A stretch of DNA of 64,000 nucleotides from Negativicutes bacterium (GTDB taxonomy: Bacteria > Bacillota > Negativicutes > Sporomusales > JAOACF01), in the NCBI GenBank assembly GCA_026417995.1, contig JAOACF010000003.1:1737-65736 (forward strand), in the 5' to 3' direction. A program made the position numbers and the translations under genes. The notes beneath the pieces were generated by a model. It was not told the DNA's origin. It made no database searches and was given only the letters and a program-made list of their open reading frames with translations. Position 1 is the first letter of the stretch; every line of letters starts with the position of its first letter. Below, in pieces: positions 45,084 to 52,527 of this stretch.

Positions 45084-45787
45084 TGCTAAAAGTTGACAGC
45101 ATAAACGTATATTATGGCGGCATACATGCACTCAAAGGCGTCAGCCTCGAGGTTCGGGAAGGGGAGATTGTGACGCTGATTGGCGCTAACGGCGCCGGCA
45201 AAAGCACAACGCTGCGCACGATTTCCGGACTGATAAAGCCGAAAAACGGGCAAATTGAGTTTGAGGGCAAGAATATTACCGGGGTTCCCGCTCATCACAT
45301 TGTGTCGCTGGGCATCTCGCAAGTGCCTGAAGGGCGCCGGGTTTTTGCCAACATGTCGGTGCTGGAAAACTTGGAATTGGGCGCCTACCTTCGCCAAGAC
45401 GCCAAAGGCGTTGAGGCGGATATGGCGCAGGTTTTTGAGCGTTTCCCGCGCCTGGCTGAGCGGAAATCCCAGCTTGCCGGCACCTTGTCGGGCGGGGAGC
45501 AGCAAATGCTGGCGATGGGGCGCGCGCTCATGAGCCGGCCGCGCCTCCTGCTCTTGGATGAGCCGTCCATGGGTTTGGCACCTCTTTTGGTAAAAGAGAT
45601 TTTTGCGATTATCAAGGACATCAACGCCGGCGGTACGACCATTCTCTTGGTTGAACAGAATGCCAACATGGCGCTCTCGATCGCCGATACCGCCTATGTG
45701 CTCGAAACCGGACGGATTACCTTGTCAGGAACGGCAAAAGAACTGAGCCAGAGCGAGGCAATCCGCAAAGCATATCTCGGGGGCTAA
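45083..45787 (+). CDS. livF: Branched-chain amino acid ABC transporter ATP-binding protein LivF
   Basis: GANGAGKSTT, LSGGEQQMLAMGRAL. Confidence 0.92.
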   Translation: MLKVDSINVYYGGIHALKGVSLEVREGEIVTLIGANGAGKSTTLRTISGLIKPKNGQIEFEGKNITGVPAHHIVSLGISQVPEGRRVFANMSVLENLELGAYLRQDAKGVEADMAQVFERFPRLAERKSQLAGTLSGGEQQMLAMGRALMSRPRLLLLDEPSMGLAPLLVKEIFAIIKDINAGGTTILLVEQNANMALSIADTAYVLETGRITLSGTAKELSQSEAIRKAYLGG

Positions 45788-45811
45788 TTTTTCCGGTGAC
45801 TGAAAGGAGAG

Positions 45812-46465
45812 ATGGATATGTTTGTGGCTAAACGTATGACCGCCAACCCTACGACAATCCACCCCAATACTACGATTGCCGACGCTTCGGAAATCATGCG
45901 CACGAAAAAATTTCGCCGCCTGCCGGTCGTCGACGATAGCGGAAAACTCTTAGGCATCGTAACCGACCGGGACTTGCGGGAGGTTTCCCCGTCGCCGGCG
46001 ACGACGCTGTCGATCTTTGAGCTCAACTATTTGCTGGCCAAAATGCAGGTGAAAGACATTATGAAAAGAAATGTCGTCACCATCGGCACGGACGCCACCA
46101 TTGAAGAAGCGGCCCTCCTGATGTACAATCACAAAATCGGCGGCCTGGTTGTCGTGGGTCAGGACGGCCGTGTCGCCGGGATTATTACCGAAACGGACAT
46201 TTTTAAATGCTTTGTTGACGTCATGGGGCTGACGGAAGGCAAAACGCGCCTCACGCTGGTGGTGCCTGACCATGTCGGCGTACTGCACGATATTACCGGC
46301 GTATTCAAAAAGCACGGCGTAAGCATAGGTAGCCTGGCGCTTCACCCCGGCGGCGACGGGGAAAAGGAGCTGGTCATCCGGGCTGATATCGCCGACGCGA
46401 AAGCACTGCTGCGCGACCTTGCGGCCGCAGGGTATCCGGTGCAGCACAGCGTGCAGATTGGGTAA
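45812..46465 (+). CDS. CBS-pair plus ACT domain protein (AcuB-like)
   Basis: Two CBS motifs (RRLPVVDDSGKLLGIVTDRDL; IGGLVVVGQDGRVAGIITETDI) followed by an ACT-like C-terminus. 24 nt after livF. Confidence 0.75.
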   Translation: MDMFVAKRMTANPTTIHPNTTIADASEIMRTKKFRRLPVVDDSGKLLGIVTDRDLREVSPSPATTLSIFELNYLLAKMQVKDIMKRNVVTIGTDATIEEAALLMYNHKIGGLVVVGQDGRVAGIITETDIFKCFVDVMGLTEGKTRLTLVVPDHVGVLHDITGVFKKHGVSIGSLALHPGGDGEKELVIRADIADAKALLRDLAAAGYPVQHSVQIG

Positions 46466-46480
46466 AAGAAGCCGGAATAT

Positions 46481-46509
46481 TTGACTTTTCGTTGTTGGCT
46501 GCATATAAT
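46481..46509 (+). promoter_or_regulatory. sigmaA promoter of the CDF transporter gene
   Basis: TTGACT, 17 nt spacer, TATAAT. Confidence 0.65.
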
Positions 46510-46514
46510 AATTT

Positions 46515-46604
46515 AAGGTCAGGCATAAAGCAAACGTGCCGGGCAATAGCAGCAGGAAGACCTGCGGGACCTTTCGGGGCGCCGCAGGTCTTAATTTTCT
46601 TCTT
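46515..46604 (+). promoter_or_regulatory. Structured 5' leader with intrinsic terminator (unclassified riboswitch/attenuator candidate)
   Basis: Three-way fold AAGGTC/GACCTT, GGCA/TGCC, GCAGG-AAGA-CCTGC. It is mutually exclusive with the terminator AAGACCTGCGG(46557-46567)/CCGCAGGTCTT(46582-46592) plus AATTTTCTTCTT. Confidence 0.45.
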
Positions 46605-46618
46605 GGGGGGTAGCAATT

Positions 46619-47515
46619 TTGGAAGCGCAGGCAAAGCTGAAACAGCGAGCAGCCGCTTTATCGGTACTGGCCAGCAGTATGCTGGTTATTGCCAAGCTGG
46701 CTGTCGGCGCTTTAACCGGCTCGGTCAGCATCATATCGGAAGCGGCTCATTCGGGGGTTGACCTGATGGCTGCGATTATCGCCTGGGTAGCCGTGCGACG
46801 CTCGGCGAAGCCGCCGGATCAAAGCCATGCCTACGGGCACGGCAAGATTGAGAATATCTCGGGCGCGGTGGAAGCGCTCTTAATCATCGGCGCGGCCTTG
46901 TGGATCATTTACGAAGCAGTAGAAAAACTGCTCCGCGGCGGAGAACTGCAGCATCTTGATTACGGCATCGCGGTCATGTGCCTTTCGGTAGCGGTCAACT
47001 ACTTTGTTTCGCGCCGTCTCATTCAGGTCGCCACGCTTACTGGCTCGCACGCGCTTGAAGCTGACGCGCTGCATCTTAGAACCGATATGTGGACATCGCT
47101 GGGCGTTATCGGCGGTTTGGCGGCGGTAAAATTAACCGGCCTGGTCTGGCTTGACCCGGCCATTGCCATCGCCGTTTCCTTCCTGATCTTCAAGGCGGGG
47201 TTTGAAATGACGCGCAAGAGCGTTTACGAGCTGATGGATGTCAGCCTGCCGCCGGAGGAGGAAGATTTAATCATCGAGATTATTCTTAGCCATCCAGCGG
47301 TCATTAACTGCCATGACCTGAGAACACGCCGTTCCGGCTCGCTCAGGATGATTGACGTTCATCTCATTCTGCACAAAGATATGCATCTCGACAAAGCGCA
47401 CGCGATATGCGACGCTATCGAAAAGTCGCTGTGCGAAAGACTTGGGCATTGCGATGTGGTGATTCACTTAGAGCCGTGCGGGTATCATGAGGAATTTGGC
47501 CAATGCCCATATTGA
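46619..47515 (+). CDS. Cation diffusion facilitator family metal exporter
   Basis: SEAAHSGVDLMA...HAYGHGKIENISG...HLRTDMWTS; TTG start. Confidence 0.88.
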   Translation: MEAQAKLKQRAAALSVLASSMLVIAKLAVGALTGSVSIISEAAHSGVDLMAAIIAWVAVRRSAKPPDQSHAYGHGKIENISGAVEALLIIGAALWIIYEAVEKLLRGGELQHLDYGIAVMCLSVAVNYFVSRRLIQVATLTGSHALEADALHLRTDMWTSLGVIGGLAAVKLTGLVWLDPAIAIAVSFLIFKAGFEMTRKSVYELMDVSLPPEEEDLIIEIILSHPAVINCHDLRTRRSGSLRMIDVHLILHKDMHLDKAHAICDAIEKSLCERLGHCDVVIHLEPCGYHEEFGQCPY

Positions 47516-47590
47516 GAAAGGCCTAATGATAATAGCCTCCTAGCGCTGTTCCCTAGCTATACTTGACTTTGAACGGCCCTTGAGCTTTTC

Positions 47591-47634
47591 GTAATAATAA
47601 AAGACGCCGCCCGGTTATTTCGGAGCGGCGTCTT
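47591..47634 (-). terminator. Intrinsic terminator of the GntR gene (5' arm inside the coding end)
   Basis: Minus strand: AAGACGCCGC...GCGGCGTCTT followed by TTATTATT. Confidence 0.7.
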
Positions 47635-48295
47635 GTTCATGTTGACAAATATTGGTGTAAGCGTTTTTTACATGTTCGGTAAGCGCTTTTTCAGCTGCGT
47701 CCGGATCTTTGGCGGCAAGCGCTTCCAAAATTGACCGGTGCTCGGCGATGGTATGAGGCAAGCGGTTTTTCATCCGCAGCGATTCCATGCGAGCAAGCTG
47801 CACATACTGGTGGAGATTGCTTAACGTCAGATTGAGTATTTTGCTGCCGGAAGCTTCGTAGATAAGCTGATGAAAGCGGTTGTCAAGCTCGGCGATTTCG
47901 TCGACATCGTTTCGTTGTGCATAAAATTCCATCAGGTCGAAGGTTTTTTGCAGTTCCTTGAGATCGGCCGGGGTAATGTGCTCCGCGGCCCAGCGGGCGG
48001 CTAGGCCTTCGACCAGTTGACGGATGGCGTAAATATCCTGAACGTCTTTCCGGGAGATGCCCAGGACGACAGCGCCTTTTTTGGTGGTGGTTTCAATTAG
48101 GCCCTCCACTTCCAGCAGCCGGATTGCTTCACGAATGGGAGTGCGGCTGACTCCGAGTTCGTCGGCCAGTTTCAACTCCAGCAGCGTTTCGCCGGGGCCA
48201 TATACGCCGTTTATAATCTGCGATTTGATATACTTGAAAACCTTATTACGCAGAGAAGCGTCGCTTGACGGGATAAAATCCTGATCCTTCGACAT
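47615..48295 (-). CDS. GntR family transcriptional regulator (FadR/FCD subfamily)
   Basis: Start trimmed to MSKDQDFIPS (SD AAGGAGGA). ELKLADELGVSRTPIREAIRLLEVEGLI wHTH. Confidence 0.88.
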   Translation of the reverse strand: MSKDQDFIPSSDASLRNKVFKYIKSQIINGVYGPGETLLELKLADELGVSRTPIREAIRLLEVEGLIETTTKKGAVVLGISRKDVQDIYAIRQLVEGLAARWAAEHITPADLKELQKTFDLMEFYAQRNDVDEIAELDNRFHQLIYEASGSKILNLTLSNLHQYVQLARMESLRMKNRLPHTIAEHRSILEALAAKDPDAAEKALTEHVKNAYTNICQHEQDAAPK

Positions 48296-48482
48296 TGGTG
48301 CATCCTCCTTTGGATTATGCTGACCATGTATTATTGTATTATAACTTGCAACGCAAAACAAGCCGTAGCAGCATTGCGAAGCGTAAAGTGCTTACAAATA
48401 TTTTACAAAAGTATATAGCGTTTTACTTTAGGCAATGCTATAATAAATACAAAAATACATGTATTAATGAGGGGTGGTATTC

Positions 48483-48590
48483 ATGGATACATTAATACAA
48501 TTTTTGCAGCGTAGTGGCCAGGACTGGGAAAAAATCTTGGAAGAGCAGCGATTACTCGAACTGGAGCAATCGCTTGCCGCCGAAGATTAA
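48483..48590 (+). CDS. Candidate 35-aa acidic small protein
   Basis: Own translation: MDTLIQFLQRSGQDWEKILEEQRLLELEQSLAAED. SD GAGGGGTGG, an extended -10 TGCTATAAT upstream, and a terminator downstream. Confidence 0.3.
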   Translation: MDTLIQFLQRSGQDWEKILEEQRLLELEQSLAAED

Positions 48591-52408: not shown

Positions 52409-52427
52409 AACGCTATAGTAAAAATCG

Positions 52428-52527
52428 CAATACAGGACTGGCGGATCAGTGGAGTTAACCACGTGGACTGTATTGTTGGAAAGCCGACCGCCTGGGCGCA
52501 TTTTGAATTTTGCCCAGGCGGTTTTTA
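52428..52527 (+). promoter_or_regulatory. ZTP riboswitch (pfl motif) with terminator
   Basis: P1 CAATACAG/CTGTATTG (8 bp). GACTGGCGG. P2 GTGG-AGTTAA-CCAC. P3 TTGG-AAAG-CCGA. Conserved CCGCCTGGGC (52488-52497), whose CCGCC pairs with GGCGG (pseudoknot). Terminator GACCGCCTGGGC/GCCCAGGCGGT plus T5. Confidence 0.85.

Follow-up and report, generated by a model that had tools for sequence, protein, structure and literature searches.

The leader of a CDF metal exporter gene in this Negativicutes bacterium is very probably a compact, divergent NiCo/czcD riboswitch of the transcriptional ON type. It would belong to a known class, as an unexceptional member that the standard database cut-off narrowly misses. 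The features of the leader are listed here by their positions in the window, which is the whole stretch of 64,000 nucleotides that was analysed; R2 is a model of related leaders described below.

46481-46509, plus strand: sigma-70-type promoter (-35 TTGACT 46481-86, 17-nt spacer, -10 TATAAT 46504-09)
46515-46573, plus strand: NiCo/czcD-class aptamer, predicted compact four-helix junction, 59 nt (Rfam NiCo, model R2, MFE fold)
46515-46520 with 46568-46573, plus strand: P1, AAGGUC with GACCUU (fold and model alignment)
46521, plus strand: junction A after P1 (invariant column in the aligned leaders; equivalent to A12 of the crystal construct)
46522-46540, plus strand: P2 hairpin, GGCA(U) 46522-26 with (G)UGCC 46536-40, loop of 9-11 nt
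46541-46543, plus strand: J2/3 GGG triplet (invariant in all aligned leaders; equivalent to G40-G42)
46543-46550, plus strand: predicted vestigial P3, G46543-C46550 and C46544-G46549 with an AAUA loop
46551, plus strand: junction A between P3 and P4 (conserved column; equivalent to A56)
46552-46565, plus strand: P4 hairpin, GCAGG 46552-56 with CCUGC 46561-65, AAGA loop
46566-46569, plus strand: J4/1 GGG and A (CUGCGGGAC, exact in the Rfam match; equivalent to G81-G83 and A84)
46557-46604, plus strand: intrinsic terminator, stem 46557-67 with 46582-92 (11 bp), U-rich tail 46593-46604
46605-46621, plus strand: Shine-Dalgarno GGGGGG (46605-10) and TTG start codon (46619-21)
46619-47515, plus strand: CDF metal exporter, 298 aa (Pfam Cation_efflux E 1.6e-49, ZT_dimer E 1.4e-24)

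The original prediction, made by eye, had named the promoter (TTGACT, 17 nt, TATAAT), three helices, a terminator with its U-rich tail and the CDF gene, and all of these proved to be present and correctly located. The promoter agrees with the consensus at 11 of 12 positions and is the top-scoring site within 45500-48500. Transcription probably starts near 46516, at the base of P1, and the leaders of the Sporomusa orthologues have a TATAAT box at an equal distance from P1. Most of the Sporomusa-group orthologues (L001, L004, L006-L010) also share the G-rich Shine-Dalgarno sequence and the TTG start.

Homology to the NiCo class

Searched over the whole window at the gathering threshold, Rfam gives no match at the leader. 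When a 221-nt segment was scanned, the Rfam NiCo model (RF02683) aligned over its full length, 1-96, against 46505-46574 with 28.6 bits and E 1e-4. This score lies below the curated cut-off of 37 bits, which is an operational rather than a structural criterion. Exact matches in the alignment include CAGGC, GCCGGGC, GCAGCAG and the J4/1 segment. A permissive scan of 46440-46660 (E <= 10) returned no match to yybP-ykoY, to another metal riboswitch or to any other riboswitch family. The sole gathering-threshold match in the window is a ZTP riboswitch at 52424-52504.

Further evidence comes from models built on the leaders of orthologous CDF genes. A first model, R1, included the window sequence and was therefore circular; R2 was rebuilt without it, on 16 NiCo leaders that belong to orthologous CDF genes and pass Rfam, and the match held. 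With filters off, over both strands of the 64 kb, R2 gives one strong match, at 46512-46574 (43.2 bits, E 1e-10), and the runner-up scores 15.8 bits. Given these E-values from Rfam and R2, the label "unclassified" originally attached to the leader has to be dropped, and the option of a divergent metal-responsive element, raised at the same time, is supported in the form of a divergent NiCo riboswitch. The cmscan search proposed as a check was thus positive for NiCo, though below the cut-off. The family had escaped recognition by eye because P3 is a 2-bp GC/GC stub, P2 has only 4-5 bp and the bulged A of P1 is deleted.

The closest CDF orthologues, with 60-64% amino acid identity, are found in Sporomusa, Pelosinus species and a Desulfosporosinus MAG. 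Their leaders occupy the same position and align with the window. Nine of them (L001-L008 and L010, from Sporomusa malonica, S. aerivorans, S. acidovorans, S. ovata, an uncultured Pelosinus sp. and the Desulfosporosinus MAG) pass the Rfam NiCo cut-off with 38.7-49.3 bits, because they retain the bulged P1 and a long P2. Across 30 leaders, 89.3% of the helix cells are paired and 17 of 22 pairs show compensatory changes, a result reached by none of 500 shuffles; controls in which the partner strand was slid by 1-3 columns gave 27-45% pairing. A de novo RNAalifold fold of 29 leaders, that of the window among them, recovered P1 to P4. The predicted helices P1, P2 and P4, arranged around a multi-helix junction, are backed by covariation in the relatives. 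The comparison of orthologous leaders suggested beforehand was therefore also positive, with covarying helices and leaders that pass Rfam.

A NiCo-like element is present in 64 of 161 sources (160 fetched loci and the window); it shares the strand of the CDF gene and lies directly upstream of it in most loci. Among these 64 elements, a continuous P1 and a 2-bp P3 occur together in the window alone. An exact-protein look-up gave no match, and genome and metagenome scans found no relative above 64% amino acid identity; because the closest relative found is this distant, selection on the compact version is not demonstrable. One related MAG carries a damaged-looking copy (L009), with GG for GGG and no P3. 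Second NiCo copies occur in two loci (L015 and L070), where the ORFs between copies and CDF paralogues had no informative Pfam matches.

Predicted architecture of the aptamer

Folded as a transcript of its own, the aptamer has exactly the predicted junction as its MFE structure (-20.6 kcal/mol). Taken by itself, the energy of the fold is only modestly unusual (z = -2.18), and it is homology and covariation, as read from the aligned sequences, rather than fold energy that take the structure beyond chance. The NiCo structure available for comparison is 4RUM, from an Erysipelotrichaceae bacterium (Furukawa et al. 2015, as cited in PMC9389577 and bioRxiv 10.1101/2025.08.02.668262). As described for that construct, A12 forms a non-canonical pair with the first G of J2/3, G40-G42 contact metal, A56 pairs with the first G of J4/1, and A9, the bulged A of the P1 internal loop, helps to bind a third Co2+ together with G40 (bioRxiv 10.1101/2025.08.02.668262).

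P1 of the window, which includes a U46519-A46569 pair, is a continuous helix of 6 bp. It lacks the A that bulges out in the family consensus (GGAaC), and the R2 alignment reads GG-UC at this point. In all 29 leaders with a continuous P1 of this kind the core is GUC/GAC. P2, with 4-5 bp, is far shorter than in relatives, the closest of which have about 9 pairs and a bulge, and in the relatives the helix covaries, with compensatory changes in all 9 of its pairs. P4 is 91.7% paired across the leaders and has compensatory changes in three pairs.

The fourth helix is vestigial. In the Rfam NiCo alignment all of P3 is deleted except the GC/GC stub, whose first base, G46543, is also the last G of J2/3. 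All 11 close leaders keep the stub, capped by a loop of 4-7 nt, and other relatives have 3-7 bp at P3. Since the two pairs never vary among the 11 close leaders they yield no covariation signal; the predicted pairs do appear in the aptamer-only MFE fold, and relatives with a longer P3 covary there. The segment GGGCAATAGCAGCAGGA, originally read as a joining strand, takes in the junction GG and the predicted 2-bp P3 remnant (GC-AAUA-GC, 46543-50), along with A46551 and the P4 5' arm.

The fold originally drawn was a three-way junction. Its three named helices are present, but the supposed linker contains a putative fourth, P3, as a GC/GC stub. A three-way junction was rejected on the grounds that the flanking GC...GC is invariant in the 11 closest leaders and occupies the place of the two basal P3 pairs in relatives with 3-7 bp.

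Within J4/1, G46568 closes P1 by pairing with C46520. The second G, the third G and the A are found in every leader, and the first G in all but one (L007, where it is A). The junction purines that make up the main metal pocket (G46541-43, G46566-68, A46521 and A46551) are all present and match the conserved letters of the Rfam family.

Terminator, proposed switching and the downstream gene

The terminator is formed by AAGACCTGCGG at 46557-67 pairing with CCGCAGGTCTT at 46582-92, followed by AAUUUUCUUCUU; its inner CCU/GGG stem is capped by UUCG. A scan for terminators under a rule of 3-8 nt for the loop did not list this hairpin, because its loop and internal loop exceed the rule, and it was recovered by folding. 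The nine core pairs of the stem are 99% paired in 11 leaders, with compensatory changes in four pairs, compared to 32-53% pairing in the slid controls. Aptamer and terminator are mutually exclusive, because both use 46557-67 (the P4 loop, the 3' arm of P4 and junction residues G46566 and G46567); the exclusive folds proposed at the outset were thereby confirmed, with this strand in common. The published switching strand of the NiCo crystal construct is given as C74-A84, which corresponds to the 5' arm of the terminator in the window. The MFE of the full leader is -34.2 kcal/mol, with the terminator hairpin as its core, and that of the aptamer fold is -18.8; these computed energies fit a switch that is OFF by default.

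Members of the NiCo class bind Co2+, Ni2+ or Fe2+ cooperatively, at roughly micromolar levels, and change conformation in response; the reference values are given in PMC9389577. Judging from the sequence, metal binding, the metal involved and the direction of switching would probably be as follows. The RNA would begin just past the -10 box, and its first ~60 nt (46515-46573) could fold as a four-helix junction with a core of GGG 46541-43, GGG 46566-68, A46521 and A46551, the counterparts of which form the transition-metal pocket of the NiCo crystal structure. In the absence of metal the terminator fold, being the more stable, should prevail, with 46557-67 pairing to 46582-92 and transcription stopping ahead of the exporter gene. 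As free Fe2+, Co2+ or Ni2+ rises, bound ions would lock the junction and retain 46557-67 in the aptamer. The terminator would then be blocked, and the FieF-like CDF exporter could be transcribed and made.

The CDF gene begins 46 nt past the aptamer, and its product has the transport-site positions H44/D48 and H152/D156. Against NCBIfam the protein scores 254.5 bits for the superfamily model, 204.7 for FieF, 198.1 for MntE, 151 for MamB, 73.3 for ZitB and 58.9 for DmeF, and it reaches no NCBIfam equivalog cut-off. By these scores the exporter appears closer to the FieF/MntE/MamB type than to ZitB or DmeF. The exporter had been called a czcD-like CDF protein; the family is borne out by Pfam, but "czcD-like" is loose, with FieF, MntE and MamB closer than ZitB and DmeF. 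The gene upstream of the leader is a CBS/ACT gene. Downstream of the CDF gene, convergent with it and outside the leader, is a GntR/FCD regulator gene (47615-48361, minus strand).

Relation to known RNAs, alternative readings and implications

The likeness to NiCo RF02683 extends over the whole element. Both have P1/P2 and P3/P4 in identical order around a four-helix junction, a predicted one in the window, with an A after P1, GGG after P2, an A before P4 and GGGA after P4. In both, the switching strand is the 3' arm of P4 with J4/1, which feeds an intrinsic terminator with ON logic (probable in the window), and a metal exporter lies downstream in an anaerobe-type genome. The differences are of size and of one metal contact. 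P3 has 2 bp in the window, down from about 5 bp, a U-A pair stands where P1 otherwise has a 2x1 internal loop with the metal-contacting A, and the aptamer has 59 nt rather than the 85-95 nt or so of the class.

Two groups of leaders each share part of this reduced form. The nine Rfam-passing leaders of the Sporomusa, Pelosinus and Desulfosporosinus orthologues resemble the window in their order of promoter, aptamer, terminator and Shine-Dalgarno sequence, their mostly TTG start, their GC/GC 2-bp P3 stub, their P4 (GCAGG/CCUGY) and their type of terminator; they differ in their bulged GGAAC/GAC P1 and long P2. The second group comprises 28 distinct other CDF leaders, from Desulfosporosinus, Desulfitobacterium, Thermoanaerobacteraceae and others, that are without the bulged A and have a GUC/GAC P1. 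Those run against Rfam all fall below the cut-off (19.9-31.5 bits). They share with the window the junction residues and the RNAalifold four-helix consensus, but have a normal P3 of 3-7 bp. Their P4 is mostly GCGGR/YCCGY, with a few GCAGA/UCUGU, and their terminator draws on GGGACUUCC (J4/1 and the 3' strand of P1), whereas that of the window draws on the 3' arm of P4.

Other metal-related RNAs are more distant. The Mn2+ riboswitch yybP-ykoY is likewise a four-way junction that turns on metal exporters, but it has no sequence relationship to the leader, and the Mn2+ site is described as lying far from its junction. The "Sensei" RNA was claimed to be an Fe2+-specific NiCo relative with altered metal-binding residues, a claim since retracted, with no response to Fe2+ or Co2+ (PMC9389577). 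An identity of this type was dropped on account of the retraction, and the window retains the NiCo junction guanines.

Loss of the bulged A, a ligand of site 3, and near loss of P3 are the reasoning behind the best-surviving alternative, which keeps the NiCo fold and switching logic but changes how many metal ions are bound, how cooperatively, or which metals are selected (Fe2+ alone, say, or Zn2+ or Mn2+). The consensus A is indeed deleted here, as it is in at least 28 other CDF leaders, of which those run on Rfam are all sub-threshold; the pairing of a continuous P1 with a 2-bp P3 is unique to the window among the 64 elements; the exporter is FieF/MntE/MamB-like; and the physiological ligand of the class is already disputed (PMC9389577). 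Such a change is nonetheless improbable. The main two-ion pocket, with six junction guanines and two adenines, is unchanged, and no sequence feature indicates a particular other metal. Furthermore, Xu and Cotruvo found crystallographic site 4 to be dispensable in the E. bacterium RNA (PMC9389577), and so loss of an accessory site need not alter specificity.

The same reductions could instead be signs of decay. A NiCo relic would no longer sense metal, its hairpin would act as a fixed attenuator or else terminate transcription of the CBS/ACT gene upstream, and expression of the exporter would depend on leaky read-through. The Rfam score under the cut-off, the short P2, the minimal P3, the missing bulged A and the damaged-looking copy in the related MAG (L009) are what such a relic might look like, and among the scans made there are no close relatives that would show purifying selection on the compact version. 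This reading is less likely still, given that all helices are fully Watson-Crick paired, the junction nucleotides that are universal in relatives are all intact, the near-consensus promoter is placed exactly as in the orthologues, and the terminator overlaps the switching strand precisely. Moreover, each apparent defect recurs in many leaders that have kept their terminators and CDF genes. A protein-dependent attenuator, also entertained originally, or another non-metal attenuator with a coincidental likeness to NiCo deserves hardly any credence: apart from the nearness of the GntR/FCD gene (which is downstream of the CDF gene, faces it and is outside the leader) nothing was found in its support, repeated protein-binding motifs are absent, the position is orthologous to Rfam-passing elements, and the R2 E-value was obtained against bona fide NiCo leaders.

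Read as a compact NiCo riboswitch, the leader exposes a gap in annotation, being invisible at the default Rfam threshold, where the search result taken alone would misleadingly suggest a novel element. The same threshold hides related CDF leaders of Desulfosporosinus, Desulfitobacterium, Thermoanaerobacteraceae and others, at least 13 and probably some 28 of them, and a retrained NiCo model would recover these sub-cut-off leaders. The leader also demonstrates how far the NiCo scaffold can shrink, with P3 at 2 bp, P2 at 4-5 bp and the P1 bulge gone while the six junction guanines are kept, and it is a minimal construct of natural origin in which the need for individual parts of the fold and individual metal sites can be examined. 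Finally, it links the NiCo class to FieF/MntE/MamB-like CDF exporters in anaerobes, which bears on the debate over Fe2+ versus Ni2+ or Co2+ as the physiological ligand (PMC9389577). As a speculation, the 59-nt aptamer might be a natural "minimal NiCo" that, together with the continuous-P1 leaders below the cut-off, could constitute an unrecognised subclass tied to the FieF-like CDF exporters of strict anaerobes, perhaps with fewer ions and a different cooperativity or selectivity, such as one tuned to Fe2+.

Identity of the leader

The 5' region of the CDF metal exporter gene (46481-46621) very probably carries a divergent, compact NiCo (czcD) riboswitch, whose predicted role is transcription antitermination ahead of this FieF-like exporter gene. 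The promoter, three helices, terminator and CDF gene named in the original prediction are each present.

Parts of the leader, from a reading of 46200-47900
46481-86 and 46504-09, + strand: promoter, TTGACT, 17-nt spacer, TATAAT
46515-20 / 46568-73, + strand: helix P1, AAGGUC / GACCUU
46522-25 / 46537-40, + strand: helix P2, GGCA / UGCC
46552-56 / 46561-65, + strand: helix P4, GCAGG / CCUGC
46557-67 / 46582-92, + strand: terminator hairpin, AAGACCUGCGG / CCGCAGGUCUU, then AAUUUUCUUCUU
46605-10, + strand: Shine-Dalgarno GGGGGG, preceding the TTG start
46619-46621, + strand: TTG start codon, opening a 298-aa ORF

The promoter, with 11/12 matches, outranks every other sigma-70-type site in the 3-kb neighbourhood. 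The ORF contains Pfam Cation_efflux and ZT_dimer domains and scores 198-205 bits with the FieF/MntE models, 151 with MamB, 73 with ZitB and 59 with DmeF, reaching none of their equivalog cut-offs; the FieF/MntE/MamB-like scores are compatible with an iron role but do not prove it. Between the convergent CDF and GntR/FCD regulator genes, a GC-rich hairpin at 47595-47640 (AAGACGCCGC...GCGGCGTCTT) looks like a shared bidirectional terminator.

At curated thresholds the leader has no Rfam match; the window's only match at the gathering threshold is a ZMP/ZTP riboswitch (RF01750, 52424-52504, + strand, 60.2 bits, cut-off 39). The search for NiCo and other metal classes suggested earlier was run permissively over 46440-46660. 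The Rfam NiCo model (RF02683) scores 28.6 bits on 46505-46574, aligned along its full length from position 1 to 96 (E = 1e-4; NiCo cut-off 37 bits), with CAGGC, GCCGGGC, GCAGCAG and CUGCGGGAC as exact matches, and no other metal riboswitch family appears in the interval even at E <= 10. Score is lost where P3 is mostly deleted, leaving GC-AAUA-GC, at the short P2 hairpin, and at two P1 pairs counted as mismatches. Because the training set of a first covariance model built from the leaders (R1) contained the window sequence, a second (R2) was built from 16 Rfam-passing leaders with the window left out. Searched with filters off against all 64 kb on both strands, R2 gives a single strong match at 46512-46574 (43.2 bits, E = 1e-10), the runner-up scoring 15.8 bits. 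The leader is thus no longer "unclassified", and the Rfam NiCo model and R2 both favor the divergent NiCo element that was one option of the original prediction. In the R2 alignment the P1 consensus GGAaC is matched by GG-UC in the window, which shows deletion of the conserved bulged A of P1.

Orthologous leaders and covariation

CDF relatives were sought in one genome of each species, which gave 80 loci. The nearest relatives (60-64% aa identity) are from Sporomusa malonica, S. aerivorans, S. acidovorans, S. ovata, an uncultured Pelosinus sp., a Desulfosporosinus MAG and related MAGs. The closest orthologues' leaders share the window's layout of TATAAT box, aptamer, terminator, G-rich Shine-Dalgarno and, in most, TTG. 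Nine of the closest leaders score above the Rfam NiCo cut-off (38.7-49.3 bits), and so the window leader sits where accepted NiCo riboswitches precede the orthologous gene, and aligns with these column by column. Remoter CDF loci have textbook NiCo elements (L015, 65.7 bits; L080, 64.6 bits). The weak TTG start after a G-rich Shine-Dalgarno recurs in the CDF genes of loci L001, L004 and L006-L010 (L003 has GTG, L005 ATG), and appears largely conserved between the window and its Sporomusa-group orthologues. A metagenome scan added 80 loci and 26 matches to the analysis's own covariance model. A strict pattern finds a NiCo-like element in 64 of 161 sources (the window and 160 fetched loci), on the same strand as the CDF gene and in most loci directly upstream of it.

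In a Pelosinus MAG (L070:1065-1146, 41.4 bits) and in Sporomusa ovata (L015:950-1041, 65.7 bits), CDF paralogues have a second NiCo element 0.4-2 kb upstream; the intervening 465-aa ORF of L070 has no Pfam match, and the ORFs of L015 give only short HAD-hydrolase and kinase fragments. The NiCo copy of a Sporomusaceae MAG (L009:2693-2762, ~240 nt from the CDF start) looks damaged (GCCGG-AUAC-GCAGC, P3 absent; CUGCGGACC, with GG where GGG is expected); decay of the switch or a fault in the assembly could explain this. Cobalamin riboswitches (L025:1278-1463, 106 bits; L041:1475-1657, 116 bits; Clostridia/Thermoanaerobacteraceae loci) lie ~1.2-1.4 kb upstream of NiCo-like CDF leaders, so that control related to cobalt is found next to control of metal efflux.

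The terminator hairpin dominates the leader's minimum free energy fold. With z = -2.18 the fold energy by itself stands out only slightly, and the argument for function must therefore rest on sequence comparison. The covariation test proposed for orthologous leaders bears the element out. In 30 model-fitted leaders, 89.3% of cells are paired and 17 of 22 pairs show compensatory changes (slid controls 27-45% paired); the 11 closest leaders, aligned with MAFFT only, give 89.2% and 7 of 22 (slid controls 17-47%), and 0/500 shuffles reached either result. RNAalifold recovered P1-P4 de novo from 29 leaders including the window, with 7 covarying pairs, and the optimal fold of the aptamer-only transcript (46511-46576, -20.6 kcal/mol) is exactly this four-helix junction, which is favored over the three-way junction first proposed. 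The two P3 pairs are invariant in the 11 close leaders and therefore uninformative either way. Since P3 of relatives is 3-7 bp long and covaries, the window's GC/GC most plausibly represents two pairs left at the base of a P3 that is otherwise almost gone, and a plain linker here is disfavored.

Terminator, putative metal pocket and proposed switch

The terminator takes its 5' arm (46557-67) from the loop and 3' arm of P4 and from the two leading Gs of the 3' junction, and this arm is therefore blocked while the aptamer is formed; the mutually exclusive folds of the original prediction hold, with this segment common to both. Its counterpart in the crystallised NiCo RNA is the "switching strand" C74-A84 (bioRxiv 10.1101/2025.08.02.668262). 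In the full leader the aptamer fold (-18.8 kcal/mol) is less stable than the terminator fold (-34.2 kcal/mol), so the default state should be OFF and read-through should require extra junction stabilisation. In 11 close leaders the nine core terminator pairs are 99% paired, with compensatory changes in four (e.g., CCUGU...ACAGG in some versus CCUGC...GCAGG in others).

The same paper lists G40-G42 (J2/3), G81-G83 (J4/1) and A9 (P1) as metal-site residues, and G40·A12 and G81·A56 pairs capping P2 and P4. The window counterparts of G40-G42, G81-G83, A12 and A56 are G46541-43, G46566-68, A46521 and A46551, whereas A9 has no equivalent. Because this contact is lost, the NiCo fold might have been kept with altered stoichiometry or selectivity, but this is unlikely: the main pocket is unchanged, and another crystallographic site (site 4) was found dispensable (PMC9389577). 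A sensing-dead relic is more doubtful still. No relative of the CDF protein above 64% aa identity was found by exact-protein look-up or metagenome scan. Against a relic, every helix is intact, all universally conserved junction bases are kept, and promoter and terminator line up with those of the orthologues. A protein-dependent attenuator, which no evidence supports, is scarcely credible.

In a functional NiCo riboswitch of this form, increasing free Fe2+, Co2+ or Ni2+ would lock the junction and thereby withhold 46557-67 from the terminator; with termination prevented, the exporter would be transcribed. Xu and Cotruvo found a Kd of ~1 uM for all three metals and argued that Fe2+ alone attains such levels in cells (PMC9389577); the in vivo metal of the whole class is disputed.

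A reduced scaffold and subthreshold relatives

Compared with the NiCo family, the window has a P3 of 2 bp (common to all Sporomusa-group leaders, which pass Rfam), a P2 of 4-5 bp, and a continuous P1 with no bulged A. P3 in the Sporomusaceae group (L001-L008, L010, L081-L084, L089) is always GC/GC with a 4-7-nt loop, and over all leaders its length ranges continuously from 2 to 7 bp. The continuous P1 is shared with 28 distinct CDF-orthologue leaders from Desulfosporosinus, Desulfitobacterium, Thermoanaerobacteraceae and others (L025, L034-L038, L041, L046, L050, L055, L057, L058, L061, L078, L091, L094, L097, L101, L104, L116, L128, L144, L150, L151 and others). Their four-helix junction is NiCo-like; GUC/GAC in P1 is invariant, P4 is mostly GCGGR/YCCGY, and GGGACUUCC forms the basis of the terminator. 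Thirteen of them were run against Rfam NiCo and all fall below the cut-off (19.9-31.5 bits or no match), which looks like limited sensitivity of the Rfam model or a subclass that has gone unrecognised.

Only the window, 1 of 64 elements, combines the continuous P1 with a 2-bp P3, and its 59-nt aptamer is among the smallest. The default Rfam threshold misses this riboswitch, and its analysis yields as by-products a natural minimal scaffold and a collection of related leaders overlooked by current models.
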